Positions 15,643 through 41,169 of a stretch of 64,000 bases of DNA are shown here, one piece after another. The position numbers and the translations under genes were made by a program. A model generated the notes under the pieces. That model did not search any database. It saw nothing but the letters and a program-made list of their open reading frames with translations, and had not been told where the DNA came from. This stretch comes from an uncultured Gammaproteobacteria bacterium (GTDB lineage: Bacteria > Patescibacteriota > Microgenomatia > Woykebacterales > RBG-16-39-9b). The stretch covers positions 9,334 to 73,333 of the forward strand of contig CAYHXX010000001.1 in NCBI GenBank assembly GCA_964360785.1, read 5' to 3'. Within the stretch, counting starts at the first letter, position 1; each line of letters starts with the position of its first letter.

Positions 15643-18600
15643 ATGTTACTTATTGTCGGTTTAGGGATCATCGTCATAATTGCTTTCTTCTTCGCTTACC
15701 GTGCTGCTTTGCAGCAGGAAACTGGGGGAAAGAAAAAAGAATCAATAAGTGAGGGAGTTCTCCTCTCTATTCGTCTTCCCAAAGAAAATGAAAAACTACC
15801 AACAGCCGCTGAGCAAATGTTTGCTTCGCTTCATGGTTTGCTAAAATTCACCCCTTCAGTTCAAGAACATATTTCTCTTGAGATGGCTAGCTCTGATGCT
15901 GGAATCAATTTTTATTGCTTTACACCCAGAGCATTCAAAAGTTTTGTTGAAAGCCAAATATATGCTCAATACCCAGATGCAGAAATTAGAGAGTCAGTCG
16001 ACTATTCCCAAAGTGTTGGCGAAGATTCCGTGGTTGTGGGGACAGAGCTGGCATTAGCCAAAGATTTTATTTTTCCTTTAAAAAGTTTTCGGGACTTTGA
16101 GGTCGACCCACTAGCGGCGATCACCAGTGCTTTGGGAAGTGTGCGTAAAAATGAACAAATTTGGATACAAATACTGGTTCGGCCAATTGATGATTTTTGG
16201 CAGGACCGTGGTCATGACTATGTGAAAATGGTCCGTGATGGTAAGCATCCCATTAGTCTTAACCCCCAAGAGATTGCCTTGGATGTGGGAAAGCAGATAC
16301 TTTCTGTGGGTGGAAATATTATTCCCTATATGATGGCTGGGCCGAAGGAGATTGTACCAGGCAGGCCAGAGCTACCACCCAAGCTGTCTGCCGGTCAGGA
16401 ACTAGACCTGAAGACAATTGAAAACAAACTTTCCAAAATTGGTTTTGAAACCAAAATAAGAATTGTTGCTGTGGCTGCCGATAAAGAAAACGCTCAGCAA
16501 AAACTTTCCTCAGCAATAGCGTCTTTTAAACAGTTTGCAACCGCGTCCCTAAACGCTTTTGAGCCTGACCCAGACAGCCCAACCACATCTTCGTTGGTAA
16601 AAAGTTATCGCGAACGTCTTTTTCCTGAGGGGGAGGGTGGAGATTATGTTTTGACAATCGAAGAGTTAGCTTCCATTTTTCACCTACCAAATATTTCAGT
16701 TGAGACGCCAACAATTGCTTGGACGAGAGCCAAAAAAGGCGAACCGCCACTCAACCTTCCTTCAACGGATGTTACTTTTATTGGTAAAAGCTATTTCAGA
16801 GATCATGAACAGGTATTTGGTATCAAAAAAGCCGATCGTCGCAAGCATATGTATTTGATTGGGAAAACTGGTACCGGAAAATCAACTTTGATCAAAAACA
16901 TGATTATTCAAGATATGCGCAATGGGGAAGGGGTAGCGGTTTTGGATCCCCATGGCCAACTAATCGATGAAATACTGGAGTTCGTTCCGGAGAACCGGTT
17001 GGATGATGTGGTTATCTTCAACCCAGCGGATGCTGATAACCCAGTGGCTCTAAATATGTTGGAGATGTTTGACCCAAGACAACGTACTTTGATGGCAGAC
17101 ACCTTGGTTGATGTTTTCAAGAAATATTTTGCCAATAGTTGGGGTCCACGACTTGAGTATATCCTCAAAAATTGTATCCTTACCCTTCTGGAGGTACCAA
17201 ACACCTCGCTTTTGTCGATTACGCGACTTTTGGTTGATAAAGGCTATCGCAGGTTTATCGTTGGTTTGATCAAAGATCCACAGATGAAAGATTTCTGGAC
17301 CACCGAGTTTGCCCGTCTTGAGCAAAACGACCGTCTAATTACTGAGGCAATTTCGCCAATCCAAAACAAAGTTGGCCAGTTTCTCAACAGTGAGCTGATC
17401 AGAAACATTGTCGGCCAACCAAAATCGACAATCAAAATTGATGATATCATCAACAACAAAAAACTTTTCTTTGTAAACTTGGCCTCTGGTAGAATTGGGG
17501 CGAACAATACTTCTTTGCTGGGAGCAATGATCGTTTCACAGCTTCAGTTTGCGGCCATGCGTCGTGTTGATATCCCCGAGGAAACTCGGAAAGATTTCTT
17601 TCTTTACGCTGATGAGTTCCAAAACTTCGCCACCGAGAGTTTTGCTGTGATTCTTTCTGAGGCGAGAAAATACCGACTTGACTTGACGATTACTCACCAA
17701 TACATCGAACAAATGCCTGAAGAGGTTCGGGATGCCATCTTTGGAAACGTTGGTACTTTGATTTGTTTTGGGGTTGGAAACCAGGACGCCCACTTCTTGG
17801 AACGTGAGTTTAGCCCCGTTTTTCTTGAGAATGACTTTATTAACCTTGGTAGGTTTGAAATGTATTTGAAGTTGCAAATTGATGATCAAGCTTCCAGACC
17901 ATTCTCAGCTATATCACTGGCACCACCAACTGATTCGACAAATCTCAACTCGAGGGCAATTCAACTTTCTCGACAGAAATACGGTAGAGAGGTTGAGAAA
18001 GTTGAGAAACTAATCAAGAAATGGACTGAAACCAAATTTGTACCTGGCCAGCCACCACAGCCTCCTCTCTGGGCGATTGAGGAAGCCAAAGCCGCGGCTG
18101 CTGCTGCTCCAGCGCAACAAGCAGTTACCCAACCAAGTAGTCAAGTACAAACGACAGTTCCACAAGCGTTTCCAAATCAATCACCTTTGGCTGATTTATT
18201 GGTTGGAGATTCCGGGCAGAATCAAGTATCCGTAGAGCAAAACGTAGTTTCTCCAGCTAGTCAAGAGCAAGCTGCGCCGGTTCAAAAGCCAGCTAGTCAG
18301 GTACCAGCAACCCAACAGCTGCAACAATCACCCACAGCGATTCCTCAGAGTGTCGATACGAATTTTATACCTTCAGAAGAACCAGTTATTCAAACAGAAC
18401 CAGAGCAACCAGCGGTGCAGAAATTTGAGGCACTAGATGAAAATTATGAAGGATCAGAAGTTTACCAAAACCCAGTTTCGCCAAAAACAGAAGCTACTTC
18501 TCCAGAGCAAAAAGTAGAACCACAACCTATCAATCGTGAAAATTTGAATCAAAACCTACCAACTGGATTAGTTAGCACGGAAGAATCGGAAAAATCACAA

Positions 18601-18681
18601 GAAGTTAATGTGGAACAAAAGCCACAAAGTGGGGAAGTGGAGATTTTCCGTTTTCCACCAAGTAATATTAATAAACCATAA
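15643..18681 (+). CDS. type IV secretion coupling-protein-like (TraD/TraG/VirD4, FtsK-HerA superfamily) P-loop ATPase with disordered Q/P/A-rich C-terminal tail
   Basis: N-terminal TM; Walker A LIGKTGTGKST; Walker B FFLYADEFQNF; final ~300 aa are low-complexity PQ-rich. Confidence 0.65.
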   Translation: MLLIVGLGIIVIIAFFFAYRAALQQETGGKKKESISEGVLLSIRLPKENEKLPTAAEQMFASLHGLLKFTPSVQEHISLEMASSDAGINFYCFTPRAFKSFVESQIYAQYPDAEIRESVDYSQSVGEDSVVVGTELALAKDFIFPLKSFRDFEVDPLAAITSALGSVRKNEQIWIQILVRPIDDFWQDRGHDYVKMVRDGKHPISLNPQEIALDVGKQILSVGGNIIPYMMAGPKEIVPGRPELPPKLSAGQELDLKTIENKLSKIGFETKIRIVAVAADKENAQQKLSSAIASFKQFATASLNAFEPDPDSPTTSSLVKSYRERLFPEGEGGDYVLTIEELASIFHLPNISVETPTIAWTRAKKGEPPLNLPSTDVTFIGKSYFRDHEQVFGIKKADRRKHMYLIGKTGTGKSTLIKNMIIQDMRNGEGVAVLDPHGQLIDEILEFVPENRLDDVVIFNPADADNPVALNMLEMFDPRQRTLMADTLVDVFKKYFANSWGPRLEYILKNCILTLLEVPNTSLLSITRLLVDKGYRRFIVGLIKDPQMKDFWTTEFARLEQNDRLITEAISPIQNKVGQFLNSELIRNIVGQPKSTIKIDDIINNKKLFFVNLASGRIGANNTSLLGAMIVSQLQFAAMRRVDIPEETRKDFFLYADEFQNFATESFAVILSEARKYRLDLTITHQYIEQMPEEVRDAIFGNVGTLICFGVGNQDAHFLEREFSPVFLENDFINLGRFEMYLKLQIDDQASRPFSAISLAPPTDSTNLNSRAIQLSRQKYGREVEKVEKLIKKWTETKFVPGQPPQPPLWAIEEAKAAAAAAPAQQAVTQPSSQVQTTVPQAFPNQSPLADLLVGDSGQNQVSVEQNVVSPASQEQAAPVQKPASQVPATQQLQQSPTAIPQSVDTNFIPSEEPVIQTEPEQPAVQKFEALDENYEGSEVYQNPVSPKTEATSPEQKVEPQPINRENLNQNLPTGLVSTEESEKSQEVNVEQKPQSGEVEIFRFPPSNINKP

Positions 18682-22360: not shown

Positions 22361-23137
22361 ATGTTTCTAACAAAACGAGTAAAAATTTCCATCATTACAG
22401 TCCTTCTCAGCTTGTCGTTATTTTGTTTTCCTTTTGTCGATGCTAATCTAAAAATTTATTATTTGGGAGCAATTGTAGTTGCTAGTTATTTGCTTTCTGT
22501 TTGGTCGATCTATCGGGATCTGCATGGCTTTGAATTTATCAATTTGTTTGTCCTACCAGTACTTTTGACACTTAGTTTTGGTCTATTCATCTATCAATTC
22601 ACACCCGGACCTGAGATTAGATTGTTACTTTCTATAGTTTATGGAGTCGTTGTTTATATAAATCTACTGGCCGAAAATATTTTCAATGTTTCAGCGGAGA
22701 GAAATATACCTTTGCTGAGGGCGGCAAGAACAGTCGGTTACCTGGTAACTCTTTTTGTTTCCTTTGCATTCTTTTCTTTGCTTTATGGTTTGGGTCTTTC
22801 TTGGTGGGTTTTAACTGTAGTATCTTTTCTGATCGGAATACTTATTTTTGCCCAAGCTGTCTGGCAAGTCGAACTTGAAGAAACTTTAAGTAGAGAACTA
22901 ATTATCGTTAGTTTAGTTTCCGGACTGCTACTTTCCCAACTTGCTGCTGCCTTGGCGTTTTGGCCGCTGACTCCACCAAAAGTCGGGCTTGCAATGACAG
23001 CAATGGTATACGTGACTTTGGGTATACTGCAACATATGATTCAAAAAGATCTGACAAAGAGAGCTGCCTTTGAATATGTCTTTCTGGCTCTTAGTGTTTT
23101 CCTCTTTCTTATCGTCACCACTACTTGGGGAATCTAG
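22361..23137 (+). CDS. polytopic membrane protein, function unknown
   Basis: Seven to eight hydrophobic helices; no motif recognised. Confidence 0.55.
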   Translation: MFLTKRVKISIITVLLSLSLFCFPFVDANLKIYYLGAIVVASYLLSVWSIYRDLHGFEFINLFVLPVLLTLSFGLFIYQFTPGPEIRLLLSIVYGVVVYINLLAENIFNVSAERNIPLLRAARTVGYLVTLFVSFAFFSLLYGLGLSWWVLTVVSFLIGILIFAQAVWQVELEETLSRELIIVSLVSGLLLSQLAAALAFWPLTPPKVGLAMTAMVYVTLGILQHMIQKDLTKRAAFEYVFLALSVFLFLIVTTTWGI

Positions 23138-23323
23138 AACTTCTTATTTGACCAAATTGCTCTGACAAACTATAATTCGAAATTAGTGAGCCACACTACG
23201 GAGTGAGGCTGCTTTGGGTGAACAGGGAGGTGCGATTGGGCGAAGAAAGAACGAGTCGCAACACAGACAGGGGGAGTACCGTCTAGTGTGACGGTCGGAT
23301 CTCAACTCATGGAGGAGTTGACC

Positions 23324-23536
23324 ATGACGGCGTATCCGTTTAAGCCGGGTCCAGGACTGCCACTATCAGGGCAGCCAGGCAGATCATCGAGTTCTCAAAG
23401 TGGTGGAAACTGCTCCCAGCAGTTGCCCACCTACGTCAGGTCCCTTCGAGATGGTATCGTGCTCGGTCGCGCTACCACACAGGAAGAACTCAGCGCCCTC
23501 GAATTGAGCCGCGCCGAGTACGACAAAAAGCCTTAG
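23324..23536 (+). CDS. small GC-rich hypothetical ORF (70 aa)
   Basis: GGAGGAG 6 nt before ATG; markedly higher GC than its flanks; terminator about 60 nt downstream. Confidence 0.35.
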   Translation: MTAYPFKPGPGLPLSGQPGRSSSSQSGGNCSQQLPTYVRSLRDGIVLGRATTQEELSALELSRAEYDKKP

Positions 23537-23592
23537 GACAAAAACCTGCAGGTTGTCCTAGTGCTCACCACAATCGAATAGCTCATCTTTTT

Positions 23593-23635
23593 GCGGTCCG
23601 GGAACTTCGAGAGTCTCGGACCGCCATCTTTTTAT
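23593..23635 (+). terminator. intrinsic terminator
   Basis: GCGGTCCG-16nt-CGGACCGC then CATCTTTTTA. Confidence 0.6.
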
Positions 23636-24729
23636 CAAGTAGAGCAGTGTGATCCAGAAACCAGAAATATAGAATATCAGATTCGCTATAGTTGTACATA
23701 CAAGTGGGAGTGAAAAACATTGTTAGTCAATACAACAAACTTGTAACAAAAATTAACGATATTAAAAGTCAGAGTGGAGGAGTGGGATGAGTAGAGAGAG
23801 AAATTTTATAACAATACTATAAGACTAGGTGATATAGTATGATATAGTCTTTCCACGTGTGGAAAGAATACTATAGGGTCTAAGTCTGGTGGGAAAGTCG
23901 ACTCGTAAAAAACCCGAAAGACCTTTCGGTTGCTGTTGAACCATGCAAAGAATCTTGTCCCTCCACCCTTCTCTCCAAAACTACTGGGATAGTAATTTTT
24001 ATTGCACACTCCTTTCTCTTGGTATCGGTGGTAAATTGTGGATAACTTTTGCACAAGCCGAAGTCGAGTGCTAAGTCCATATTGGTTTTAGCCTCAAATT
24101 TACATTTATCTAATGCAATTTGTACCTATAGAACAAGCAATTTCGGATCTCCTCGCATCGTCTTCAAGGACGTTACTAGGTTTAGTTAAAGCAATACTTT
24201 TGCCTTGGTTATAGTCGAGCCGCTGTAAGGCCCTAGAAGGCATTTTTATACTTGGAGTAATAAAGTAAGTAGTCTGTGCAAAAGAGAGTGTAAAGAAAGT
24301 TTTGTGTAAATGTTATTTTGATAGACCTGGTAATACCTCTTCTCCCGGTCAGTAAGGCGCCTCAGCTTCAAATGTTAATACGTCGCACAATGTATCTTAT
24401 GCGACGTCAGATAGAGCTCCCTACCGATCGATGTTTTTAAAATTTTCTGTGCTTTCCTACTGCGCCTTGACTACAAAAGAATTAAATCAAAAAATGTTTT
24501 CTAAATTCTCTATTTTCTGGTTGGTCTAAAATTTATAAATTTCCAGTTGTGGCTGAAAATTACTAATTGGCTGCTATAGAAGGCAAAAACTTAAATTTGC
24601 TCATTTTAACCCCTTCCCCGTCCTTTAGGAAAAATGGACCTATAATTATCAAAATAGACTGACATACCAAGCAAAAATACCAAAATTAGCCTCAAAAATA
24701 AAAACGCCCGGTTCCGGTTTAGCCGTGAA

Positions 24730-24816
24730 CTAGGCGTTCAGAGACGCAATTTTCCATGTGTCAGACCAGATTTCCGCCAGTTCAAGCTTCAAGAGGTCGT
24801 CGCGCAAGGGTTTCAT
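24730..24816 (-). CDS. candidate 28-aa micro-protein (MKPLRDDLLKLELAEIWSDTWKIASLNA)
   Basis: AGGAGG 8 nt upstream of ATG; immediately followed on the minus strand by a stem-loop plus TTTTTATTTTT. Confidence 0.35.
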   Translation of the reverse strand: MKPLRDDLLKLELAEIWSDTWKIASLNA

Positions 24817-24923
24817 CCGCCTTGCCTCCTAGCTGAGATCTCTACCTCGTGCCAATTACAACAAAGTTTTACAAATTTTGCAAGATTGCTTTCCAAACAT
24901 GTTTTGTCTATTCTTAAATTTCT

Positions 24924-25304
24924 ATGAAAAGTTTTAAACAAAACTATTTGATAAAAGCTCCAGTTGAAAAAGTTTGGCAGGCACTGGTTGCTCCGAAGAT
25001 CATTGAACAGTGGTCGGGTTCCAAAGCAGTGATGTCAGATCAGGTTGGTGCAAAGTTTGAGCTATGGGATGGCGATATGTTTGGTACCAACGCTGAAGTT
25101 ATTGCAAATAAAAAATTAGTCCAAGACTGGTTCGGTGGTGATTGGCCGGAACCGTCGAAAGTGACTTTCAACCTTTCAGAAAAGGATGGTGTTACCGAAG
25201 TTGAGTTGGTGCATGAAAATCTGCCTGATAAGGAAGCCTCTGATTTTGAGTCTGGTTGGCGTAATTATTATCTCGGCTCAATTAAGAAAATGCTTGAAGG
25301 ATAA
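24924..25304 (+). CDS. SRPBCC-superfamily protein (AHSA1/Activator-of-Hsp90-ATPase-like)
   Basis: Starts KAPVEKVWQALVAPKIIEQW; 126 aa, typical size and fold signature. Confidence 0.7.
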   Translation: MKSFKQNYLIKAPVEKVWQALVAPKIIEQWSGSKAVMSDQVGAKFELWDGDMFGTNAEVIANKKLVQDWFGGDWPEPSKVTFNLSEKDGVTEVELVHENLPDKEASDFESGWRNYYLGSIKKMLEG

Positions 25305-28637: not shown

Positions 28638-29390
28638 CTACTCCTTCTGAAATTCGCTCGGTGTCCAGAAGACGGTGTCTGTCGGCAGATCAATGTACTC
28701 GGCCATACTCGCAGAAGTGAATCCTGAGTAGTAGTGGCCGTCTGGGGCCATGGTCGATTCGGTAGCTATTGTGACTTTCATGCCGCCGTAGCCGAGTTGC
28801 GCACCTCCGTATTTGCCGATGAACCAGGGATCTCCGGCAGGGCTGCGACGCAAGACGAAATTGTAGGCCAGCTTGGCTTTATCACCTGGCTGGAAGTCGG
28901 GCTTGTAGCGCTCGCCGACTTCTGAGATTCGGAACAGGAGAAACTGCTTGTCGTCGAGCCCGAAATCATAACCCTCGGTATAGACCGACCCTTGTACAAC
29001 ATGGATTGGCAGGACCCAGTAGCCTTTGGTCTGATCGTTATGGCCGTGCAGGGTTGGTTCGCCAATAAGCTGAACGATGTCATGGTCCTGGACGCGATGA
29101 CCCTCGAAAGTGCAGTGCTTGAGAACGGGCATGTCCTTGTAGCAGTCAATCTGACCGGTGCCGAAAACCTCGTAATAGGCGCCGACGACGTACTTTTGCG
29201 TCAGTGCCGGTGTCGTTGCATCAGGCGCTGCTGTTGGTTCTGCACTTAATGCAGTTGTGCCATTGTCCTTGCCTAGGTTCTTCGTATCGTCATGGACGCC
29301 GATGGCAAAGGCAGCGATAAGGACGATTGCCACTACCGCCGCAATGATTCCGAAGACAGCTTCCCCTGGGGTTACCCGTCTTAGTCTCAT
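28638..29390 (-). CDS. GC-rich membrane-anchored secreted hypothetical protein
   Basis: MRLRRVTPGEAVFGIIAAVVAIVLIAAFAIG TM anchor, A/P/T linker, ~200-aa domain; about 58% GC; the antisense ORFs look spurious. Confidence 0.5.
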   Translation of the reverse strand: MRLRRVTPGEAVFGIIAAVVAIVLIAAFAIGVHDDTKNLGKDNGTTALSAEPTAAPDATTPALTQKYVVGAYYEVFGTGQIDCYKDMPVLKHCTFEGHRVQDHDIVQLIGEPTLHGHNDQTKGYWVLPIHVVQGSVYTEGYDFGLDDKQFLLFRISEVGERYKPDFQPGDKAKLAYNFVLRRSPAGDPWFIGKYGGAQLGYGGMKVTIATESTMAPDGHYYSGFTSASMAEYIDLPTDTVFWTPSEFQKE

Positions 29391-29552
29391 AATCCCCTCC
29401 TTGGGCTAGAGTTGATCCTTCCCGATTTCTTGGTTGAATTATAACTTATGGAGTAAAGTTGGAGTAATTAAATTTTAGTAATTTCAATTTTGAGTGTAGG
29501 TAAAAAAGAAGGTTCTCTGAGGCAGCCGAGCTGTTTGCTCAGGATGGCAACC

Positions 29553-30467
29553 TCAGAGTTTAATCTTGCCGTGCGAAGGTGAGCGCCGGCGTTGTCTATA
29601 GGGTTTCCCGTTCTCCTCTTCAACATTGATTGGTGGGCCACTAACTAAATCATGTACATAACCGCAGCAGATGCAGGTCGCGTAGACGCCGTACCAATCT
29701 CTTTCGTGAATCATCGAACCACGACAGCGAGGGCATGTTCGGGGTAGGTTCGTCTTCGGCGGAACTACACCGTTAGAATTCGGTGTGGCGACAGGCTTCA
29801 CCTTTACCGGTGTTGGTTGAATCGGTGCGGGTTTTGGTTCTTCCCAGGCTGGTTTCGGCGCTCGAACTGTTGGACTCGAAGGTACTTGTTCTCGAGCAGT
29901 GGCTTGTTGGAGCATAAGCTCGATCGCTTGCCTTCGGTCCTCTCTACGACGGAACCGTTCCGCTTCTCGTTCCTGTTTCGCTTGCTTTTCGTCCTTCTCT
30001 TGTCGGATTTTCTCCCCGACGCCGAAATCGTCGACCCTGTTTGTGGAAGCAGGTTTTCGCGGAGTTGCACCAAGACGTGGCTTTCCCCTTGGGATCGAAA
30101 ACTCGGCGGCCCACTTTTCGGAAAGAATCAGCGGATCCTCCGTTAGTAGGTTCTGCCAGAGTTGCCAGTTCGGTGCGGTTCGTCGGCCGGGCGAATGTCT
30201 TCTTGTTCGAAAATGGTGTATCGAGATCTTGGGCCCGAGAGCATAGATCTTTCGACTGGACTTTTCACGCACAGCTACAAGCCAGCGCTGACCTTCCTCA
30301 GCAACAGAATCTTCGAAGTAGATTTGGGCGGTTTGGGTAAACGGTCGCCCATACCCAATCATCTCGTAGATAACTGTCAACTCCAATGGGTTGTAACCCC
30401 AGGGATTCGTATCAGCGCACAGGTACAACCCCGGACGTAGGTTCCGAACCAGATTACTGAGACTCAC
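29553..30467 (-). CDS. GC-rich hypothetical protein with C-terminal C4 zinc ribbon
   Basis: CPRCRGSMIHERDWYGVYATCICCGYVHD; R/E/K-rich charged middle; P-rich linker. Confidence 0.5.
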   Translation of the reverse strand: MSLSNLVRNLRPGLYLCADTNPWGYNPLELTVIYEMIGYGRPFTQTAQIYFEDSVAEEGQRWLVAVREKSSRKIYALGPKISIHHFRTRRHSPGRRTAPNWQLWQNLLTEDPLILSEKWAAEFSIPRGKPRLGATPRKPASTNRVDDFGVGEKIRQEKDEKQAKQEREAERFRRREDRRQAIELMLQQATAREQVPSSPTVRAPKPAWEEPKPAPIQPTPVKVKPVATPNSNGVVPPKTNLPRTCPRCRGSMIHERDWYGVYATCICCGYVHDLVSGPPINVEEENGKPYRQRRRSPSHGKIKL

Positions 30468-30574
30468 TGGTCACCTCCTTTCCTCGGGTGCTCTCTCGAA
30501 GTGGAAAAACCTAGGCTGATATTAACAATAATATACTAGGAAAACAATTGTTGAGTTGCGAACGATTATATTTT

Positions 30575-31249
30575 TTATTTTCTGATTCTGATCAGAGAGG
30601 GATTGTCGACTCCTCCACCGGCGCCGGCATACATGCCAAAAAGAAAATCACTGATCTTATACTTGTGTTTGCCTCCCCGCTCGTCCCAAAGCGGATCATT
30701 GACGTAAACGAATTTACGGTCGATTCCGGTGACAACATTAAAATGAAAGTTGAAGCGTGGGTTTTTGGCAAAAAGAAAACTGGAGGTAAGAACTACGATC
30801 GATGGGTTTTTACTCTTTAACTCTTCGCGGATGTCCTCTTCAGTTGGAATTTTTACTTCGACTACTCCCCCATCTTTCATGAACTGCAAAAAGAATTTCA
30901 CCGCTCTTTTGTCGTTCGAAGTTTTGATACCGTATCCAGCAATTGCTTTGCTTTTTGTATTAGAAATTTTTTCTAAGTGGTTTTTTATTTTGTCTTGAGA
31001 AGCACCGATTTCGTTAAGCGTAAAGAGCCCAGGGTTAAAAGTGGTAACTGTTACTTTGAACCCATTTTTGATTAAGAACGAACCCAGTTGAGGACAGTAA
31101 GTTCCAAATTTATCAGCCTCTAAATTTTTCTGGATTTGTTCAAAGGTAAACGGCAGTTTCCAAAACTTTGTAATCATGTTGACCGCAGCAATTCCGCAAT
31201 CAACAGAATCTTTTTCTTGACGAACAATTGGAACGTTTAATGGTTTCAT
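30575..31249 (-). CDS. peptidase C39-like (papain-fold) domain protein
   Basis: VRQEKDSVDCGIAAVNMITKFW catalytic Cys context; start set at MKPLN (31249). The track ORF extends to 31546 through GC-rich foreign sequence and is probably spurious. Confidence 0.6.
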   Translation of the reverse strand: MKPLNVPIVRQEKDSVDCGIAAVNMITKFWKLPFTFEQIQKNLEADKFGTYCPQLGSFLIKNGFKVTVTTFNPGLFTLNEIGASQDKIKNHLEKISNTKSKAIAGYGIKTSNDKRAVKFFLQFMKDGGVVEVKIPTEEDIREELKSKNPSIVVLTSSFLFAKNPRFNFHFNVVTGIDRKFVYVNDPLWDERGGKHKYKISDFLFGMYAGAGGGVDNPSLIRIRK

Positions 31250-31419
31250 TTTGAGGGAATTGTACAGGTAGGTTTGAAAGTTGTCAAAAAGTTTGGGAAA
31301 ATTAATAAGTAAATTAAATGTCAGAGGACTCCCGCCGGGTTCGAAAACCTGGTGGCGGGAGTCCCTGTAGCCCACGTAGTGGTCGCAGAGCGCGGAGCGA
31401 TCTATCTCCGTTCCATGTG

Positions 31420-31962
31420 CTAGTGGAATCGGCTGATGTCGATCACCTGGATGCGTGGATCGCTGCTGCTCTCCTCGTTGTCGTAGTCCACCGGTTGGAA
31501 GTGGAGGTGACGTTCCGGGTTGAAGCTCGGGTGCTTCTCCACCCACTCCCTGTAGGCCTCTTCGTCGTCCTTGGTGATCTCGCCGATGAAGGCCATCTCG
31601 ACCTCGTGCTGGGCTTGCACTCGGAGAGCTCGCAGGCAGTGGAGTGCGAGCAGCTGCATCACTTGGATGGGCTGCTCAGTGAACGCGCCGTCCTTGTATT
31701 TGCGCGCGACCTGGCGGTAGAGATTGAGGACCAACGCTTTGAGCTCGTCGAGGTCTTTCGCGACGACGAACTGATCCACCTCGGGATCGCTGGCTGTTCT
31801 CCGCATCTCCCGGGCGAACGCGTCCTTGTAGTTGGAGTGCGCATAGGCAGCTTCCATCTCTCCGAGCACGATCCCGGGAAAGAAGCTCCAGACGGTGTAG
31901 TGCAGGTCGTACGGGTTTTCCCGTAGCCTTGCCAGGGTGTAGTTTTCCACGGCGGTGACCAT
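31420..31962 (-). CDS. GC-rich hypothetical protein
   Basis: 180 aa of balanced composition; the antisense ORF 31318..31926 is R/V/L-rich and typical of a shadow ORF. Confidence 0.45.
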   Translation of the reverse strand: MVTAVENYTLARLRENPYDLHYTVWSFFPGIVLGEMEAAYAHSNYKDAFAREMRRTASDPEVDQFVVAKDLDELKALVLNLYRQVARKYKDGAFTEQPIQVMQLLALHCLRALRVQAQHEVEMAFIGEITKDDEEAYREWVEKHPSFNPERHLHFQPVDYDNEESSSDPRIQVIDISRFH

Positions 31963-32016
31963 TCCTTTCGTTCCCTCCCTTGCTTCTGAATGATTGATGG
32001 GAATATTTTACCACAC

Positions 32017-32931
32017 TCAGTCTACTATAGGATTTCTTGAAGGTAAAACTCTAACTAACGACCAAGCGGTTTGGGTTGAAGATGGTTTGGTGAAGATTTT
32101 GTAGGACTTAAAGTCCGTTTTTGAGCTGCCAAACAAAAATTGACCAGGATCAGAAATAACCTCAATGTCGCCTACTCCAATGTTTCTTCCACCTTCATAC
32201 CATAAGAAAAAAGGTCCAAAAAAAGTCTTTTCTTGGTTTAAAGAATAGGAAACTGCCCTTGCTTGCTTTGTTGTTGCCAAAGATATGGCCATGCAGTTTT
32301 TTCCAACTCCATAACTATTGGGTTTAGATGCGACTATTCTTATCGCCTTAACCAAGGCTTTTTCTATCTCATCAACAGTATTTGCCTTACGAAGTGATGC
32401 TTGTAAAATCCTTCTGTCGTTTCGATCAAAAGGTTGCGTTGGTGGAATTATGATAACTTGTGGTCGAGATGAATCAAGCGACTCAACTTTAAATTCTTTT
32501 TCGACAGAACCATTAGTTGAGACATTAGAAATAGTTCGAACATATGGTTTAAGGATTGTATCATTTTTCTGTTCCCATCCGGCAATTACGAAAACGTGTC
32601 GTTTTTCTAAATGATCTGGAAAAGTTCGAAACAATTCCGTAGCCTTTTTTGCTAACACTTCAACCGCTATCTGTACCTCAAGTTCGCATAAACCTTCTTC
32701 TTGTATTGTCTCTGTTAACCAATGATCAATCCGCTTATCATTTACCCTACCTATCCCTGCAAAAGTTATTGTTAACAATGCATTCTCACAAGAAAAGACT
32801 AAAGCTTTGTTTGCCTGATCGTTGACGGTAATGCCAGTCGCCATATCAGTAAACATTCGATCTGACACTTGTACTATTAAATTCTTTGTCACCGCAGTTA
32901 AATTTAGTGTCATGCTTGAGAATATTAGCAC
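32017..32931 (-). CDS. hypothetical protein
   Basis: 304 aa, low GC, no motif recognised. Confidence 0.5.
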   Translation of the reverse strand: MLIFSSMTLNLTAVTKNLIVQVSDRMFTDMATGITVNDQANKALVFSCENALLTITFAGIGRVNDKRIDHWLTETIQEEGLCELEVQIAVEVLAKKATELFRTFPDHLEKRHVFVIAGWEQKNDTILKPYVRTISNVSTNGSVEKEFKVESLDSSRPQVIIIPPTQPFDRNDRRILQASLRKANTVDEIEKALVKAIRIVASKPNSYGVGKNCMAISLATTKQARAVSYSLNQEKTFFGPFFLWYEGGRNIGVGDIEVISDPGQFLFGSSKTDFKSYKIFTKPSSTQTAWSLVRVLPSRNPIVD

Positions 32932-32951
32932 TTGGAAAAGGAGCGGGCAAA

Positions 32952-33290
32952 TTATTTTTTCTTGGGGATTTTCTTTTCTACAAATCTGACAAAGTGATAA
33001 GACTTCTCTACGATTGGCCAGGTATTTTCAATCTCCTCAACAGAGGTGATTTCAGCTGTAACCCAAGTCTTTCCAAACTCAAACTTTTCGAAAAAACCAG
33101 TTTCCCTAGCTTCTTCAAAATCCTCTGCCGAAAGACGAAGTAAAAGTTGGAAGAGATTATCGTCGATTTTTTTATACCCACCAAAAAACTTCCTCTCCGG
33201 AGTGTGCGCGATCGTCCAGCCAAATTCTTTGCGCCAGGTTATAGGACCGAGATTTTCGATTTTTTGGATCAAGATTTCTTCAAGTGACAT
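32952..33290 (-). CDS. hypothetical protein
   Basis: 112 aa, low GC. Confidence 0.45.
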   Translation of the reverse strand: MSLEEILIQKIENLGPITWRKEFGWTIAHTPERKFFGGYKKIDDNLFQLLLRLSAEDFEEARETGFFEKFEFGKTWVTAEITSVEEIENTWPIVEKSYHFVRFVEKKIPKKK

Positions 33291-33403
33291 GTGAGTAACT
33301 TAACACTTTGAAAAGAAGTGGGCAAATAAGATAAAAGAAACTCCCGTCGAGGTTTGCTCGGACGGGAGTCGGTGGTTCTTACATATGTTGCTGCGTTGAG
33401 TCT

Positions 33404-33751
33404 TCAGGAAACGATCTCCTCGTGGCTCGATTCGGTCGGCTTCGTCTCGCCGATAACCGGTGGTGCGTCCTTGCTGATTGTCACCGGAGTCGTAAGGCCC
33501 TCGTACTCGAAGACCAGTTCGACCTTGTGGTTCTCGGCAAGGCGGATGTCCACAAGACTTGACCATTCGAGGCGGTACAGCACGACGCTGCCGAGGGTGG
33601 TTCCCTTGTACCTCAGGATGTTGCCGTTGGCCTGATGCAGGCTGTAGCGAACGCCTTTCCGTACCCACGTCACGACGCCGTGAATGATTTTCGCCTGAAA
33701 ATGGGCGGCGACTTGATCGGTCCACTTCTCTTCGAGCAGAACTGTTGCCAT
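33404..33751 (-). CDS. GC-rich hypothetical protein, paralog A of 36410..36760
   Basis: KW..QVAAHFQAK / LAENHKVELVFEYEGLTTPVTISKDAPPVIGE aligns with KW..EVAGHLQAE / IAGHKVALVFKRDGHKRMVTISKDSSPVIVGE. Confidence 0.5.
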   Translation of the reverse strand: MATVLLEEKWTDQVAAHFQAKIIHGVVTWVRKGVRYSLHQANGNILRYKGTTLGSVVLYRLEWSSLVDIRLAENHKVELVFEYEGLTTPVTISKDAPPVIGETKPTESSHEEIVS

Positions 33752-33770
33752 GACGCCCTCCTTCGCTGTG

Positions 33771-34223
33771 CTAGTTGCTGAAGAACTCGCCGAGCATCGT
33801 ACCGCCGGGTACGATCTTGGCGAACAAGTCAGTCGTACTCTCGTCCCGGTGCTGGCTGTGGCAGATTGGGTGGATTGCCGGTGGTTGGTTGAACAGCCTA
33901 CCGATGGCTACCTCAGCCCGTTTGATCTCTGCCAGACCAGCGCGATTGGCCGGATTGTTGTTGTCCCTCGATAGGACCGTGACGATGTGCAGAACCCTTC
34001 CAGTCGGAAGGTGGCCGAAGATGACCCCTGCCTGGACTTCCCGCTTGCGCAGTTCGTCCATGAATGCACCCGCGGCCCGTGTGAGAGTGTCGGCCCGGTC
34101 CTCGCCGACCCCGACTTCAACCAGCTTCTGCTGTAGCCAACTGATTCCGTGAAAGACCAAGATGACCTCCTGCTTCCTGCAGATCCCTGCTGTGGGGTGC
34201 TTTCTTTGCAGCGATTTTAGCAA
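33771..34223 (-). CDS. GC-rich hypothetical protein, operonic with paralog A
   Basis: 150 aa; 20-nt gap to the downstream gene; the antisense ORF is spurious. Confidence 0.45.
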   Translation of the reverse strand: MLKSLQRKHPTAGICRKQEVILVFHGISWLQQKLVEVGVGEDRADTLTRAAGAFMDELRKREVQAGVIFGHLPTGRVLHIVTVLSRDNNNPANRAGLAEIKRAEVAIGRLFNQPPAIHPICHSQHRDESTTDLFAKIVPGGTMLGEFFSN

Positions 34224-34623
34224 TATTGTTGGATTTAGGCAAATAGAGCTACATTTTTTTGAAATTGAGAAAAAAAGAATTGCCGCCGATCAACAGGGAG
34301 AGTGACCGGCGGTTCGAAGACACTGATTCGAGATAGCCGTGCGCCCAGTACGTTAGGCGATCTTGCCGTTCTCGAAGAACAGGTGCGCAGTCAGAACGAC
34401 GCCAAATGCGGTGAGGAGGACGAGAGCCTTCTCTACCGTACTGAGTCTTTGCGGTTGAAACCGTTCGGATGACTGATCCCTCATGGAAATTTCTCCTGCT
34501 AACTCCCTGCAGGGATAATTATATTTATTTTTCGTTTGGAAATAAATGGACAATTAAAGCGGATTAAAAAGTGGGTTGTGATCTCTCTCCGGAGAACACT
34601 ACCCGAAAGCTGAGTTTCGCTAG

Positions 34624-35073
34624 CTACATTGGATACTCCTCAGCTTCCTCTTCCCGTCGTTTATCAAGAGCAAAGAGTTCAAATGAACGCCGAACATTCT
34701 TCGCAATCTGTTTCGGATCCTTACTGCTCTCGCATTTGAAGCCATGCCACCTGCGATACTTTTCGCGTGCCTCTGGAGTAATGATTCCGGTGGTCGCCAC
34801 CAAAGTTATCACAAAATGGGGCTCTTTCCTTTCGATGTGACCAATCGCCCACTCGATATCAGTTTGTGTAATCTGTTCATTAATACAGACCCAGACCATC
34901 CCATCTTTGTTTACAACAATGATCTGTGGCCCACGTGCTAAACCAGATTGAATCTGTATATTCAGATCTGTGGTCTGTAGTTCTCTGGCAATACTTCGGA
35001 TACGAGCTGGTAAGCTCATATCAGCTGGGATGCCAGGGAGCATGAGGACAAGAGTGTCGAAGAACCGAGGCAT
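34624..35073 (-). CDS. hypothetical protein
   Basis: 149 aa; acidic C-terminus. Confidence 0.4.
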   Translation of the reverse strand: MPRFFDTLVLMLPGIPADMSLPARIRSIARELQTTDLNIQIQSGLARGPQIIVVNKDGMVWVCINEQITQTDIEWAIGHIERKEPHFVITLVATTGIITPEAREKYRRWHGFKCESSKDPKQIAKNVRRSFELFALDKRREEEAEEYPM

Positions 35074-35192
35074 CAGACTCCTCCTTCTGAAAGTAGCGAT
35101 CTCTGGTTCGCGAGGTGAGATTATATCAAATTGGGAAAAAGAAAGACTCCCTTTGGTTTACGCCGTGGGGAGTCTGAGATCTCTAGTTTGTT

Positions 35193-35561
35193 TCATTTGC
35201 TGATTACTCTAAACCGTTTGGACCTTTCCCGATGTTGCCATCTGAGTCTGTGCCACTCGTATTTTGACCAAAGACACGACAGCAGTGTCACCGTCAGAAT
35301 GAACACTGGTAGAACTATGGTCGGGATGACGAAATTGGCTGTCCATTGAAAATGCGTTGTTGGGAACAACAGTAGAACTGTTCCGACATAAGCTGGTCCA
35401 ATAATGAATAGTGCAATTCCACTGATCAATATGTCGCCCGTCTTCCAGAAAGCAACCGATTGTCTGATCTTTCGAATTCTCCCACTCTGTCCTGTTCGGT
35501 TGCGGCGATTACTCTTGAGCAGACGAAGCGTTGGTTTGGGTTGCTGATTCCCATAACCCAT
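35193..35561 (-). CDS. small membrane protein
   Basis: 122 aa, two TM helices, basic N-terminus. Confidence 0.35.
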   Translation of the reverse strand: MGYGNQQPKPTLRLLKSNRRNRTGQSGRIRKIRQSVAFWKTGDILISGIALFIIGPAYVGTVLLLFPTTHFQWTANFVIPTIVLPVFILTVTLLSCLWSKYEWHRLRWQHRERSKRFRVISK

Positions 35562-35678
35562 GAATCACCCTCCTCTTTTTTGTCTTTGGTTTTTATATGT
35601 TAGCACTGGGGAAAGAAGTGGGCAAATTTATAAATAAGAAAAAGAAAGACCCCCTTGGTTACCCGTAGGAGTCTGTGG

Positions 35679-36254
35679 TCAGTTGATAATCGTGCCTTGA
35701 GCGTTGATTGGCACTTGGACCGATCTTACTTGAGATTTTCTACTTTTTCTTGTTCGCGATCTTCTCCTGTTGTTTTCAAACATTTTTTTCGGAAAGACTC
35801 CAGCAGAGATACTCAGGAATACTCTATCCAGGCTGGGGTATTTCGTTGTCGATCTTTCCATCAGTTTCCAGAAGCCCTTGATATGTTCGTTTAGCATTTT
35901 GCCAAGTATTGTCTTTTGTACATGCAGCGGTAGATTTGACAGGACAATAATGGCAACCGCTACTGCGTGGGCATAAGCTATTTGGTGCGGAACTGAGTTG
36001 TTTCCTGGCATCGCGCTGTAGAACATGTGATAGCAGTGTTCCACATGGTCCTTCAAATCTTCGACAGGTAACGCTAACAGTTTCGGATCGCCCGCTATTT
36101 CCTTTCTGGTTTCTTGAAGGCAGCCAGCAATTTCTGGTGTATCAAGTGTTTCTTGTTTCCAATTGACCCGAGGGAACTTTCGGCGCACCATAGCCAGGAC
36201 GGGTGTTGGGTCAGACAAGAGACTGACGAGAGTGTACAGCTTGGGTGGTGGCAT
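35679..36254 (-). CDS. hypothetical protein with basic C-terminal tail
   Basis: 191 aa; C-terminal RRRSRTRKSRKSQVR. Confidence 0.4.
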   Translation of the reverse strand: MPPPKLYTLVSLLSDPTPVLAMVRRKFPRVNWKQETLDTPEIAGCLQETRKEIAGDPKLLALPVEDLKDHVEHCYHMFYSAMPGNNSVPHQIAYAHAVAVAIIVLSNLPLHVQKTILGKMLNEHIKGFWKLMERSTTKYPSLDRVFLSISAGVFPKKMFENNRRRSRTRKSRKSQVRSVQVPINAQGTIIN

Positions 36255-36409
36255 CCTATTCCTCCGTGAACTCGTCCTTTCGTGATGAGGATTTTATCAC
36301 ATCTTATAATTCATAGTAAATTGGAGAAGGATTTTAGAAATGAAAGAAGGGAAGGTCCGGTGTGGATCTTCCCTTTGGGGTGCAGAGCTGGGTGTTGGTT
36401 TCACGAGCT

Positions 36410-36760
36410 TTAGGAGACAGTACCCTCTCTGCTGGTCGGTGTTGCTGGTGGTTCTCCAACGATGACCGGCGAGCTGTCCTTGCTGATCGTCACCATTCGC
36501 TTGTGGCCATCACGTTTGAAGACCAGGGCAACCTTGTGACCGGCGATCCAGAGGATTTCCGTCAGGCCTTCCCAGTTGAGGTCACTGAGGCTGGATCCGG
36601 ACGTGGTGACCTCGGTTAGGGAGACACTGTCGCCGGTTCGGTCCAGCGCGGTGTGAACTCCCTGGTGATCCCAGCGGATCCTGCCGTTGGAGGTTTCCGC
36701 CTGCAAATGGCCGGCGACCTCCATCCACTTACTTGCGCGTTCTTCAGGCGTCATTTGCAC
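36410..36760 (-). CDS. GC-rich hypothetical protein, paralog B of 33404..33751
   Basis: See paralog A alignment. Confidence 0.5.
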   Translation of the reverse strand: MQMTPEERASKWMEVAGHLQAETSNGRIRWDHQGVHTALDRTGDSVSLTEVTTSGSSLSDLNWEGLTEILWIAGHKVALVFKRDGHKRMVTISKDSSPVIVGEPPATPTSREGTVS

Positions 36761-36890
36761 TTACTCCTCCTGCTAATATCGTTCCGTTAGGGGCTATTTT
36801 AGCATATAGTTAATAAAAATGGGATTTACTTGAGGATCTTGGCAATGAATTTGTGGGTTGAAACAACCATGTAGAGTGTTGTTTTCCTGA

Positions 36891-37433
36891 TTAGTCCCAA
36901 AAGATCGGGTCAGAGATAAACGGGCCAAAAGCAAAAATTATTCCGTGTGAATAAGCTAGATCGCGAGGCAGGTGCTTGTTGCTGATTAGACCCATCACAC
37001 CTTCCTCCTGATAAATATTTGGGTTACCCGAAAGCCCAATCACAACGTCTCTTAGTTCTTTTCCAGCCAAAAGTTGCTTGGAGATTTTGTCTGATACCTG
37101 CCAGTGTGCTGAAGTACCCAGTCCCAGATTACCTTTCCTATCGACTACGGCAATCCAGCCACTTTCGAACCAGCGCTCCCCCACTTTGTGCATGCCACCT
37201 TCCATACCGATTGCATAATCTGCTTTGGTTTTTTTCAGCGCGTTTTGGGCGCGGTTTATTGCTCCTTTCAGGCTTATTTCAGCAGACTTGGGTTGATTAT
37301 CTACACCGGAATCAACTTCAACTCCTGTTACTTTAGTTCCAGGGAAAAGTTTATCAATGGCTAGTTGGGCGGCACGAATCTTGGCCTCATTTGTACTGCC
37401 GACAACGATTTTCATCCTATCTTCTTGATCCAC
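36891..37433 (-). CDS. non-canonical purine NTP pyrophosphatase-like (YjjX / inosine-xanthosine triphosphatase family)
   Basis: MKIVVGSTNEAKIRAAQ..., WFESGWIAVVD; true start probably the internal MKIVV. Confidence 0.65.
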   Translation of the reverse strand: MDQEDRMKIVVGSTNEAKIRAAQLAIDKLFPGTKVTGVEVDSGVDNQPKSAEISLKGAINRAQNALKKTKADYAIGMEGGMHKVGERWFESGWIAVVDRKGNLGLGTSAHWQVSDKISKQLLAGKELRDVVIGLSGNPNIYQEEGVMGLISNKHLPRDLAYSHGIIFAFGPFISDPIFWD

Positions 37434-38187
37434 TGATCAAAAATATTTTTAATTTCAGCTAAATGTTCTGGTGCTTGGAAAGTGTGGGGTGCACCCTTGA
37501 TTACATGAAGTTCTTTTTTGTCACCTGGAATTGTTTCAAAAAGCACCTGTGACTCATAGAGATGTTCGTCTTTTTCGCCAACAATCAAAAGTACTGGCAT
37601 GGTTAATTTTTCTGCTTGCGGAAGCAAGTCATATTTCATCCGATCTTCAATATGAGACCATTTCAATTTCTTGATTAAACCAGGAATGGACCCACTTTTT
37701 TGTTCTCGCCAACCAGTTTTCTCCCATTGTTCAGCTACCCTTTTGTGGCGCGGGGTTTCAACACTTAACTTTCCGGAAACAACTGTTGAAATTGGGGCTA
37801 AGGCTTTTACCAGTTCAGGATGACGTTCGGCGTACAAAGCAGTTGAAATTCCTCCAAGACTGTGACCGGACAGGCAAAAAGGTTCTTGATACCAGCTTTG
37901 GGTTTTCGCCAGCTAATGACATCTTCGAGATCTTCGTAATAATTTGTTGTGGTGGCATCCGCGTAATCTCCCTCGCTTTCACCATAAGTATTGGTAGTAT
38001 CAAATCTGATAACTGTGTAGCCGGCGTCAGAGAAAGCTTTGGCAAAGGTTTCGATGTGAGGTTGCTCTTTGAAACCGCCTAGTCCGTGGGCTACGAAAGC
38101 AAGGCCTTTTTGGTTCTCGGCCTTCTCAAGAATTAAAACAATCTTTTGCTTTTTGCGGTTTTGGATCGTGATTTTTTCCATAATCAA
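37412..38187 (-). pseudogene. alpha/beta-hydrolase gene disrupted by a 1-nt frameshift
   Basis: N-half (ORF 37807..38187: VAHGLGGFKEQPH...EDLEDVISW) and C-half (37412..~37900: AKTQSWYQEPFCLSGHSLGGISTALYAERHPE... with GHSLGG nucleophile elbow) lie in frames offset by -1 at ~37895-37905 (att agc tgg | gcg aaa). Confidence 0.6.
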
Positions 38188-39924: not shown

Positions 39925-41169
39925 ATGTCAGCAACTGGGTTAGTCCTGTCGACCGACCAATCGGACAGCAAAATAGTTGATATATATACAAAAGGTGAGC
40001 ACAAGTCGCACCTTGTGTCGGCATGGTTGCCGATCCGTCGAATCAATGCCTTGAGGCAGATGCGCACGACATTTGACCCGGAAGAGTTGCGGAGTCTGGC
40101 AGATAGCATCACTGTCCAGCATCTGCTCCACCCACTGGTGGTGGCGCAATTTACCTCTGAACAGGCACTTGAGCACCTGCGGGTTATAAACAGAGCTTGG
40201 GGAACACACTACACAATCAACGACCTCAAGGCTACCGAGACTGAGGAGGGTTTGTTCTACTTCATTCTGGCAGCTGGGGAAAGAAGGTTGCGGGCAGTCC
40301 TATGGCTTTGGGAAAAAGGTTGCGAAGCTCATCGTGAAGAATATTCTCCGCAACCGGTTCCAGAAGGTTTCTGTTACATCAGTCACTTTGGAGACGACAG
40401 GATTCCGGTAAGAATCCGCACGGACGCAACTCCAGATATCGTACTAACAGTACAACTGGTAGAAAACACAGCGGTCCTGCCGCTACCACACGAAACTGCA
40501 ATGGCCTTTTCGGAGTACCACCCGATTTGGCAAGTATTCAACCCGAAAACAACTCTGAAAGATTTTGCCAAACAGGTGAATCGTTCATCAAGTACAGTCA
40601 GCGATTACCTGCGTTATGCCAAGCTTCCGGAATCGATCCACGAAGAAGTAAAGCAAGGGCTCATCCCATTCGGGATTGCGGTAGAGATCTCTCGTTTGCA
40701 CGAAGACGGTATGGGTGAGGAAGAGCTGGGATATTGGGTGTTGAAGGCCAAGGCCGGCAACTTCCCGATCCCGGACTTTCGTGAGATGGTCTCAAACACA
40801 CTCAAGGAAAGACACTCCGGACAAACAAGCATGTGGGATATGATGACGGCAAACGCTGTCGCCGCTGCCAACATGCAAGATATCCGACTGATACTGGAAC
40901 GGCAGCAAAGCCGTGGGTGGCACGTTGCGATTGGGGTAAGAAAGCGAGTGATAGCGCTGGTGAGAGATGGAAAACTGGGATTTAGAGACTCGCCCTTCTC
41001 CTCGAGAAGCGTAGTCAGACAGATGCGAATCGATCTCGAACTAGCTCGAGAAGAGAATGAACTTCTCAAACACTTGCTCGGTGCAGAAGGTTACCAGCAA
41101 GCTACTGAGATACTGGCAGAGCGGGATAGCCTGACTTTGCAATTATTTGAGAGAGCGGAAAGAGAATGA
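39925..41169 (+). CDS. ParB/Srx-like nuclease-domain protein
   Basis: GGAGGGAGG RBS; LPIRRINALRQ..ELRSLADSITVQHLLHPLVV...FILAAGERRLRAV (ParB N-domain box II-like); GC-rich. Confidence 0.65.
   Translation: MSATGLVLSTDQSDSKIVDIYTKGEHKSHLVSAWLPIRRINALRQMRTTFDPEELRSLADSITVQHLLHPLVVAQFTSEQALEHLRVINRAWGTHYTINDLKATETEEGLFYFILAAGERRLRAVLWLWEKGCEAHREEYSPQPVPEGFCYISHFGDDRIPVRIRTDATPDIVLTVQLVENTAVLPLPHETAMAFSEYHPIWQVFNPKTTLKDFAKQVNRSSSTVSDYLRYAKLPESIHEEVKQGLIPFGIAVEISRLHEDGMGEEELGYWVLKAKAGNFPIPDFREMVSNTLKERHSGQTSMWDMMTANAVAAANMQDIRLILERQQSRGWHVAIGVRKRVIALVRDGKLGFRDSPFSSRSVVRQMRIDLELAREENELLKHLLGAEGYQQATEILAERDSLTLQLFERAERE

Follow-up and report, generated by a model that had tools for sequence, protein, structure and literature searches.

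Two paralogous orphan genes in a variable island of a probable CPR/Patescibacteria chromosome and a possible likeness of their products to CdiI-type immunity proteins

Introduction

The immunity protein CdiI of Klebsiella pneumoniae 342 (CdiI-Kp342, PDB 6CP9) has a published topology of one alpha helix and nine beta strands, and is described as a dimeric beta-sandwich lying over the active site of its toxin, a BECR tRNase. This study focused on two paralogous genes, here called copy A and copy B, which specify proteins of about 115 amino acids (aa) and are located in a 64,000-nucleotide (nt) stretch of an environmental assembly (contig CAYHXX010000001.1, referred to below as the window), probably the chromosome of a bacterium of the candidate phyla radiation (CPR/Patescibacteria). 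Copy A lies directly behind a gene for a 129-aa protein, and a preliminary description of the locus had proposed a cassette of the toxin/immunity, toxin/antitoxin or phage-defence kind. By predicted fold and gene order only, the CdiA-CT/CdiI-Kp342 system appears to be the closest known system.

The proteins of the family to which both copies belong (the 115-family) are of the same length class as CdiI-Kp342, about 115 aa, and their predicted model has the same order of elements, one helix then nine strands (template modelling score, TM, of 0.55, with a weak E-value). CdiI-Kp342 is encoded directly downstream of its partner gene, as is copy A. There are differences, however: no sequence similarity between CdiI-Kp342 and the 115-family was detectable, the upstream gene in the window specifies a free-standing 129-aa protein rather than the C-terminal domain of a large CdiA, the host is a probable CPR bacterium and not a proteobacterium, and copy B and all orthologs are solitary. 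Searches of Pfam, NCBIfam and PDB sequences did not place the proteins in the CdiI sequence family, and nothing resembling a cdiBAI locus was seen, as no CdiA- or CdiB-like genes were present among the open reading frames (ORFs) of the window that were scanned.

Type II toxin-antitoxin systems are comparable in that the 129-aa gene and copy A are two small, tightly spaced genes of a bicistronic operon, with one promoter, in an accessory region. They differ in that neither protein matched a toxin or antitoxin family or fold (Pfam, NCBIfam and PADLOC, and no PDB analogue of the 129-aa model), neither has a recognisable DNA-binding domain, and the conserved co-occurrence and adjacency typical of such pairs was not found between the two families. 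The anti-phage defence models of PADLOC gave no match for copy A, copy B or the 129-aa protein and one insignificant match for a neighbouring gene, and searches of PHROG, IMG/VR, INPHARED, phage and plasmid sequences recovered no phage, prophage or other homologs of either family.

The concept of orphan immunity genes and polymorphic toxin-immunity islands is reportedly that of Zhang et al. 2012. Features shared by such islands and the locus described here are fast-evolving small proteins, the presence of paralogs, location in a variable island, and a copy that stands alone with no toxin next to it. Unlike them, the window has no polymorphic toxin bearing trafficking domains and no Imm-family match in Pfam, and its solitary gene, copy B, is syntenically conserved and vertically inherited.

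Copies A and B are genuine, paralogous genes

Copy A (33404..33751, minus strand, 115 aa) is the second gene of a bicistron, and copy B (36410..36754, minus strand, 114 aa) is monocistronic. The two proteins share 41% identity over 108 residues (BLASTP, E 1e-19). In an all-against-all comparison of the 446 mechanical ORFs of the window they were the strongest pair of small proteins and the only significant one (E 4e-17), and the same DNA read in its antisense frames scored only 8e-4. The paralogy asserted in the preliminary description is therefore upheld, and the conserved N-terminal helix and C-terminal blocks that it named are both found in the sequences. It had also given a pair of 115-aa proteins; both ORFs are indeed present on the minus strand, but copy B most likely begins at ATG 36754, as in all orthologs, and would then be 114 aa long (the alternative start, GTG 36760, gives 116 aa). 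Copy A has a Shine-Dalgarno (SD) sequence, AAGGAGG, 5 nt ahead of its ATG, and that of copy B is AGGAGG.

Both genes are GC-rich, as had been claimed, and the excess is concentrated at third codon positions. The GC fractions at the first, second and third positions are 0.59/0.39/0.74 in copy A and 0.57/0.50/0.70 in copy B, so that third-position GC (GC3) is 0.70-0.74 in the two copies versus about 0.38 elsewhere in the window. The ratio of nonsynonymous to synonymous substitution rates (dN/dS) ranges from 0.26 to 0.5 in the 115-family, and the codon-position GC together with a dN/dS below 1 fixes the coding frame. GC-rich DNA yields long ORFs in several frames here, and on that ground both ORFs might be taken as spurious, chance products of base composition. 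This has a negligible probability and is effectively refuted: protein conservation is much stronger in the called frame than in others, the dN/dS values and the GC periodicity by codon position speak against it, SD sites, promoters and terminators accompany the genes, and a fold is predicted confidently. Copies A and B are genuine, selectively maintained genes of a soluble family that is lineage-restricted and fast-evolving, with members of about 115 residues.

That copy B is solitary was confirmed. It is followed by its own terminator hairpin (36347..36375, minus strand; -19.7 kcal/mol, z-score -3.9, none of 200 shuffles as stable), and an extended -10-like box read from the sequence, TGCTAAAAT, lies upstream of the gene (36796..36804, minus strand); this box was not among the promoter-scan results, and its -35 is poor.

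Rarity and evolution of the 115-family

The 115-family was remarkably difficult to find elsewhere. In a word-indexed search covering some 5.8 billion clusters, a profile of copies A and B recovered nothing beyond the two window proteins themselves. When 1.84 billion representatives were scanned in full with HMMER, three more true relatives of the same size appeared, the other matches being repeat-protein noise, and a renewed search with the resulting five-sequence profile added one more, bringing the total to six members, all metagenomic. These are copy A, copy B, and one protein from each of the loci L004, L007, L008 and P0013, of which L008 and P0013 are short contigs. A scan of genome collection P0002 gave no match. 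The preliminary description had regarded a common housekeeping domain as the outcome that would tell against its proposal, and this is not the case: with six members among billions of clusters, the 115-family is an almost unique orphan family.

Orthologs of copy B occupy the same, syntenic edge of a variable gene island in L004, L007 and L008, and P0013 supplies one further ortholog. The shared order is a run of tRNA_bind, CutA1, PNPOx and/or NTPase_I-T genes, then the 115-family gene, then unannotated ORFs. The housekeeping run is 70-90% identical between lineages, and the CopC gene that bounds the far side of the island in the window does so in L007 too. The orthologs share 60% (L008), 41% (L004) and 29% (L007) identity with copy B, and a neighbour-joining tree placed copy A on a long branch next to the B/L008 clade. 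As the orthologs resemble copy B and the branch of copy A is long, copy B is the ancestral gene, which stands alone at the border of a hypervariable island of ORFans (orphan ORFs), and copy A is a later, accelerated, lineage-specific duplicate that became the distal gene of a bicistron behind the 129-aa gene.

Between the window and L008, the copy B orthologs have a dN of 0.297 and an unsaturated dS of 0.94 (ratio 0.32), and the adjacent NTPase gene has a dN of 0.055 at the same dS of 0.94 (ratio 0.06). The equal dS of the two genes argues for vertical co-inheritance, and the roughly 5-fold higher dN of copy B at equal dS points to protein evolution that is fast yet constrained. Fast evolution under purifying selection is typical of conflict genes. 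Four polar positions, H16, D93, E110 and S114, are invariant in the family, and a terminal motif, E-x-[IT]-V-S, is conserved after a disordered linker; the C-terminal tail is acidic or neutral, not basic.

The operon of copy A and its 129-aa product

The gene ahead of copy A (33771..34160, minus strand), whose product is a candidate toxin or binding partner, had been described as specifying 150 aa, but this is the maximal reading from TTG 34223. The start is most likely TTG 34160, and the protein hence 129 aa long, because an SD sequence (AGGAGG) is found 5 nt upstream, the alignment with the sole homolog begins there, and this start is downstream of a promoter-like site, the -10 box of which (34214..34222) falls inside the 150-aa extension. 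The promoter-like site (34214..34242, minus strand) reads TTGCCT-17-TAAAAT with a TG extension and was detected by a consensus scan, the overall count of which was not enriched versus shuffles. Promoters of the same type, TTGCC...TGnTAAAAT, also precede neighbouring genes and the homolog of the 129-aa gene in L004. An intrinsic terminator, comprising a hairpin and U-run, follows copy A (33340..33370, minus strand; -23 kcal/mol, z-score -4.8, none of 200 shuffles as stable). The compact operon of the preliminary description is thus supported by a promoter, two SD sites and a terminator, with a spacing between the genes of 19 nt, not 20. Between the operon and copy B is a 43-aa ORF (34353..34484) with a terminator of its own.

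A single homolog of the 129-aa protein is known from BLAST and profile searches of the fetched loci and a metagenome scan. It is a 141-aa protein of L004 (12511..12936), 36-38% identical and aligned from residue 1; the metagenome scan re-found only the L004/L005 contig, and a word-indexed protein search returned only the 129-aa protein itself. The dN/dS of this pair, the 129-family, is about 0.14, but with saturated dS. Searches of Pfam, PHROG, PADLOC, NCBIfam, and PDB sequences and structures gave no family or fold match for the 129-aa protein. A degenerate minimal nucleotidyltransferase was considered for it and dropped, the likeness being by eye only and the catalytic Asp residues being absent.

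Predicted structure and an immunity-like reading

AlphaFold2 (AF2), supplied with an alignment of the six 115-family sequences, produced a best model with a predicted local distance difference test score (pLDDT) of 83.9 and a predicted TM score of 0.72 (pLDDT 84 for copy B in rounded form). The model has a helix at residues 3-17, then nine beta strands, and about ten disordered residues at the end, so that the predicted fold opens with a helix, continues as a beta-sandwich or meander of nine strands and closes with a disordered tail. The top and only full-length PDB matches obtained with Foldseek were chains B, D and H of 6CP9 (TM 0.52-0.56, 104 columns, target length 114-116), and Tsi1 immunity proteins were also among the matches. 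The predicted fold can be called immunity-like with moderate confidence. BFVD provided no viral structural analogue. The 115-family had no Pfam or NCBIfam match at E <= 1, and 6CP9 was absent from the PDB sequence matches even at E <= 10, those searches giving only noise. A MazF/CcdB-like toxin was also considered for the 115-aa protein and discarded, since no such fold was among the matches.

The best reading of these data, which is put forward tentatively, is that members of the 115-family act as protein-binding modules of an immunity-like kind, with CdiI of K. pneumoniae 342 as their analogue, and are paired with a toxin that has so far escaped recognition. Copy A would bind and neutralise the 129-aa product, a toxic or hazardous enzyme translated from the same mRNA, and copy B would bind another target, as an orphan immunity protein or inhibitor. 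Support comes from the gene order, which is in the style of toxin then immunity, with a 19-nt gap, two SD sites, one promoter and one terminator; from purifying selection under which the protein nevertheless changes at about 5 times the rate of the adjacent housekeeping gene, dS being equal; from the paralogy of the two copies; from the predicted fold with its CdiI and Tsi1 matches; and from the setting, a variable island with accessory genes such as a C39 peptidase in the window and a patatin in L004.

A considerable number of observations weigh against this reading. Adjacency of the 115- and 129-families was seen once only: where flanking sequence was available, copy A alone (one of the six family members) had a 129-family neighbour, and the whole L007 island, which includes a 115-family gene, has none of the 129-family. 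In every lineage the copy B-type gene has different immediate neighbours. Of the five AF2 models a single one was confident, the other four having pLDDT values of 56-62, and the best Foldseek E-value was 9e-3, with none below 1e-3 and most of the other matches being generic beta-meander or propeller blades. The 129-aa protein lacks a delivery domain, and its model, predicted from a single sequence, is poor (pLDDT 69) and without a meaningful structural neighbour. No toxin, antitoxin, immunity or defence family was matched by either protein in Pfam, PHROG, PADLOC, NCBIfam or PDB sequences. Lastly, the conserved polar residues and C-terminal tail of the 115-family point to a partner that is itself conserved, not to a polymorphic interface.

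The arrangement in L004 bears on the same question. Its 115-family gene, which specifies 114 aa, is 2.2 kb upstream of the 129-family homolog and 26 nt behind a member of another family (the 191-family, see below), and 67 nt downstream of the homolog is an acidic, GC-rich, 119-aa ORF, which was unrelated to the 115-family profile (hhalign probability 0.3%). It is a published precedent that homologous toxins can have unrelated immunity proteins, and this would explain why a different small acidic ORF follows the homolog in L004. Also in L004, a 21-nt sequence, GGACAGAGATCAGGGACTCCC, occurs twice (12943..12963 and 13378..13398), directly after the 141-aa gene and the 119-aa gene, and each copy begins a hairpin.

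One way of examining its proposal that the preliminary description had suggested was co-occurrence of the two families across genomes, and taken as adjacency this fails, being found for one in six members, so that the cassette idea is unconfirmed by the description's own criterion. Another was structure prediction for both families, which was partly fruitful: the 115-family model has CdiI as its best analogue, with a weak E-value, but the 129-aa model matched nothing. As for the cassette itself, paralogy, an operon and an immunity-like best analogue were found, but the pairing is not conserved. A toxin/immunity function is accordingly retained as a hypothesis, since adjacency fails, the ORF downstream of the L004 homolog is unrelated, and no toxin, antitoxin or defence domain was detectable in the libraries.

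The missing toxin signature and delivery domain, the unconserved pairing and the stand-alone traits of copy B would fit equally well with a non-toxic accessory module. Here, the 115-family would be an adaptor or regulator that docks via its C-terminal tail to a conserved partner, either the 191-family or a housekeeping machine, the 129-aa operon would specify an ordinary two-subunit complex, and copy A would be sub- or neo-functionalised. This is the main alternative, and it is about as probable as the immunity-like reading. The variation of its neighbours between lineages implies that copy B acts as a stand-alone gene, and it is monocistronic, with a promoter-like box and terminator, and keeps one syntenic position. 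The 191-aa ORFan (35679..36254, minus strand), which has a basic C-terminal tail, is matched by homologs of 47-50% identity in L007 and, over its N-terminal 72 aa only, of 33% identity in L004, so that the 191-family accompanies the 115-family in all three lineages with enough flank. The four invariant residues, H16, D93, E110 and S114, and the conserved terminal motif after a disordered linker are also in keeping with docking, as is the lack of a toxin signature anywhere in Pfam, PHROG, PADLOC and NCBIfam. However, a high evolutionary rate and an island location would be unusual for a core regulatory adaptor, the family is missing from all but a few closely related lineages, and the best structural analogue is an immunity protein.

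If the immunity-like reading were true, two wholly new protein families would join the toxin-immunity repertoire, within a known kind of system; they would come from the CPR, the conflict systems of which are almost uncharacterised, and would include an immunity gene that was duplicated and then recruited to a new partner. If not, copies A and B would be an ordinary lineage-specific ORFan pair, one more case from a variable island of a kind common in such genomes, and of limited general consequence.

Composition and shared features of the variable island

Both copies are carried by a variable island (28638..36760, minus strand) of unannotated, mostly separately promoted genes, which is a mosaic of GC-rich and GC-poor sequence. 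Its flanks are syntenic with those in L004, L007 and L008 but the content differs. The only island match to Pfam that reached the curated cut-off was Peptidase_C39 (30575..31249), and none of the island ORFs had a convincing match in PHROG, PADLOC or NCBIfam. The C39-like peptidase is a stand-alone protein of the bacteriocin-processing type, and its gene is AT-rich (GC 0.39) beside GC-rich neighbours.

GC3 values are 0.63-0.83 in several island ORFans and in a gene at 61850..62596, versus about 0.38 for the genome, and the excess is also present in the homologous regions of L004 (9429..13363), L007 (1882..3459) and L008 (1606..2216). It persists despite a dS of at least 0.94 and native-type, AT-rich promoters, and because it persists across lineages, simple recent acquisition alone does not explain it. 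A 28-nt element with 86% identical copies (32925..32952, 33300..33327 and 35600..35627) is found just upstream of three minus-strand island genes and probably contains a shared promoter, TTGCCC...TGTTAA. The recurrence of this promoter-like element before island genes indicates that the GC-rich genes share a promoter type with their AT-richer neighbours.

A strong and patchy GC3 deviation (0.70-0.83 versus 0.38), together with ORFan content and a nearby ParB-like gene (39925..41169), might suggest that the two copies arrived from a GC-richer donor as cargo of a mobile element, such as a prophage that has since degraded, and that they serve in, for example, anti-defence or superinfection exclusion. 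Such an origin is very improbable. PHROG gave no matches, relatives were lacking among IMG/VR contigs and phage or plasmid records, BFVD had no matching fold, there was no integrase or flanking tRNA, and a repeat scan revealed no att-like repeats or mobile-element boundaries around either copy; in addition, the promoters are of native type, and the dS of copy B, being the same as that of the neighbouring housekeeping gene, points to vertical inheritance.

Four unrelated island families, namely the 115-family, the 191-family, the L004 119-aa protein and a window 298-aa protein, have a common C-terminal ending, [IVT][IV][SNDE]-COOH, with REGTVS, HEEIVS, GTIIN, NPIVD and FEIVED as the observed tails. 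The carriers in the window are specified at 33404..33751, 36410..36754, 35679..36254 and 32017..32913, and those of other loci at L004 13004..13363 and L007 3564..4142. In the window, 4 of 71 genes specify this ending and all four are inside the island; among background ORFs the frequency is 13 in 1684 (0.8%), giving a P of about 1.5e-4 for a pattern that was chosen post hoc. The common ending could be a shared tail signal. Arg/Lys-rich C-terminal tails (e.g., NNRRRSRTRKSRKS and GKKRRGRRRRNRR) were seen in proteins specified at 29553..30467, 35679..36254 and 35193..35561 of the window, L004 11166..12301 and L007 2260..2442.

One interpretation of the shared ending, which is unlikely, is that these proteins are exported cargo of an episymbiotic CPR cell, unrelated, fast-evolving effectors with a common C-terminal export or targeting tail, with the 115-aa proteins being such effectors, or their chaperones, delivered to a host cell. 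The confinement of the ending to the island is compatible with this, as are the Arg-rich C-terminal tails of several island proteins, a TrwB/VirD4-like coupling ATPase (15643..18681), and recovery from a 0.1-um groundwater fraction at a site rich in CPR bacteria. On the other hand, the motif was defined after looking, the tail of the 115-aa proteins is acidic or neutral rather than basic, no further secretion-system genes were recognised next to the island, and signal peptides are absent. The coupling ATPase is 1012 aa long and combines two domains, one of the TrwB/VirD4 coupling-protein type and one a HerA-like ATPase (Pfam E 1e-11), and no other secretion-system genes were recognised around it.

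A broader interpretation, and decidedly improbable, is that the island as a whole is a reservoir of unrelated fast-evolving proteins with a common ...[IT][IV][S/N/D]-COOH tail, often after a basic or Pro-rich linker, and with long-kept GC3-rich codon usage. These would form a specially handled or exported class of an episymbiotic CPR bacterium, to which copy A and the 129-aa protein would contribute a pair, either effector and immunity protein or effector and chaperone. Of the observations in this study, the long-lasting GC3-rich codon usage and the C-terminal ending common to unrelated island proteins stand out as the more unusual, and both are based on little data.

Two island proteins have cysteine motifs. 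The 304-aa protein, one of those with Arg/Lys-rich tails, has a C-terminal CPRC...CxxC zinc-ribbon in common with L004 17226..18095, and in a 324-aa island ORF of L007 (5686..6660) the C-G-E...P-C-P-R-C spacing resembles, by eye, a cytidine-deaminase-like zinc motif, for which Pfam finds nothing.

Source and other features of the window

A look-up of identical sequences showed that the window proteins are present on contigs from Hainich groundwater (well H52, 0.1-um fraction), which match the window with at most two mismatches; CPR/Patescibacteria are abundant at this site. The window carries genes for DnaB, ClpB, RuvC, YebC, P-type ATPases and leucyl aminopeptidase, and this content indicates a chromosomal origin. 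An assembly chimera was considered and dismissed, because two other ENA samples and a Logan run of the same site provided three more assemblies, all in agreement within two mismatches.

The sole match in an Rfam scan of the window was a tRNA-Leu. About 1.8 kb (23137..24924) is without an ORF of at least 100 aa and without an Rfam match. Outside the island, an alpha/beta-hydrolase gene (37412..38187) looks split into two overlapping ORFs, of 124-126 aa and 141 aa; it may be a frameshifted pseudogene, or the result of a programmed or assembly frameshift, and it has the same form in independent assemblies.

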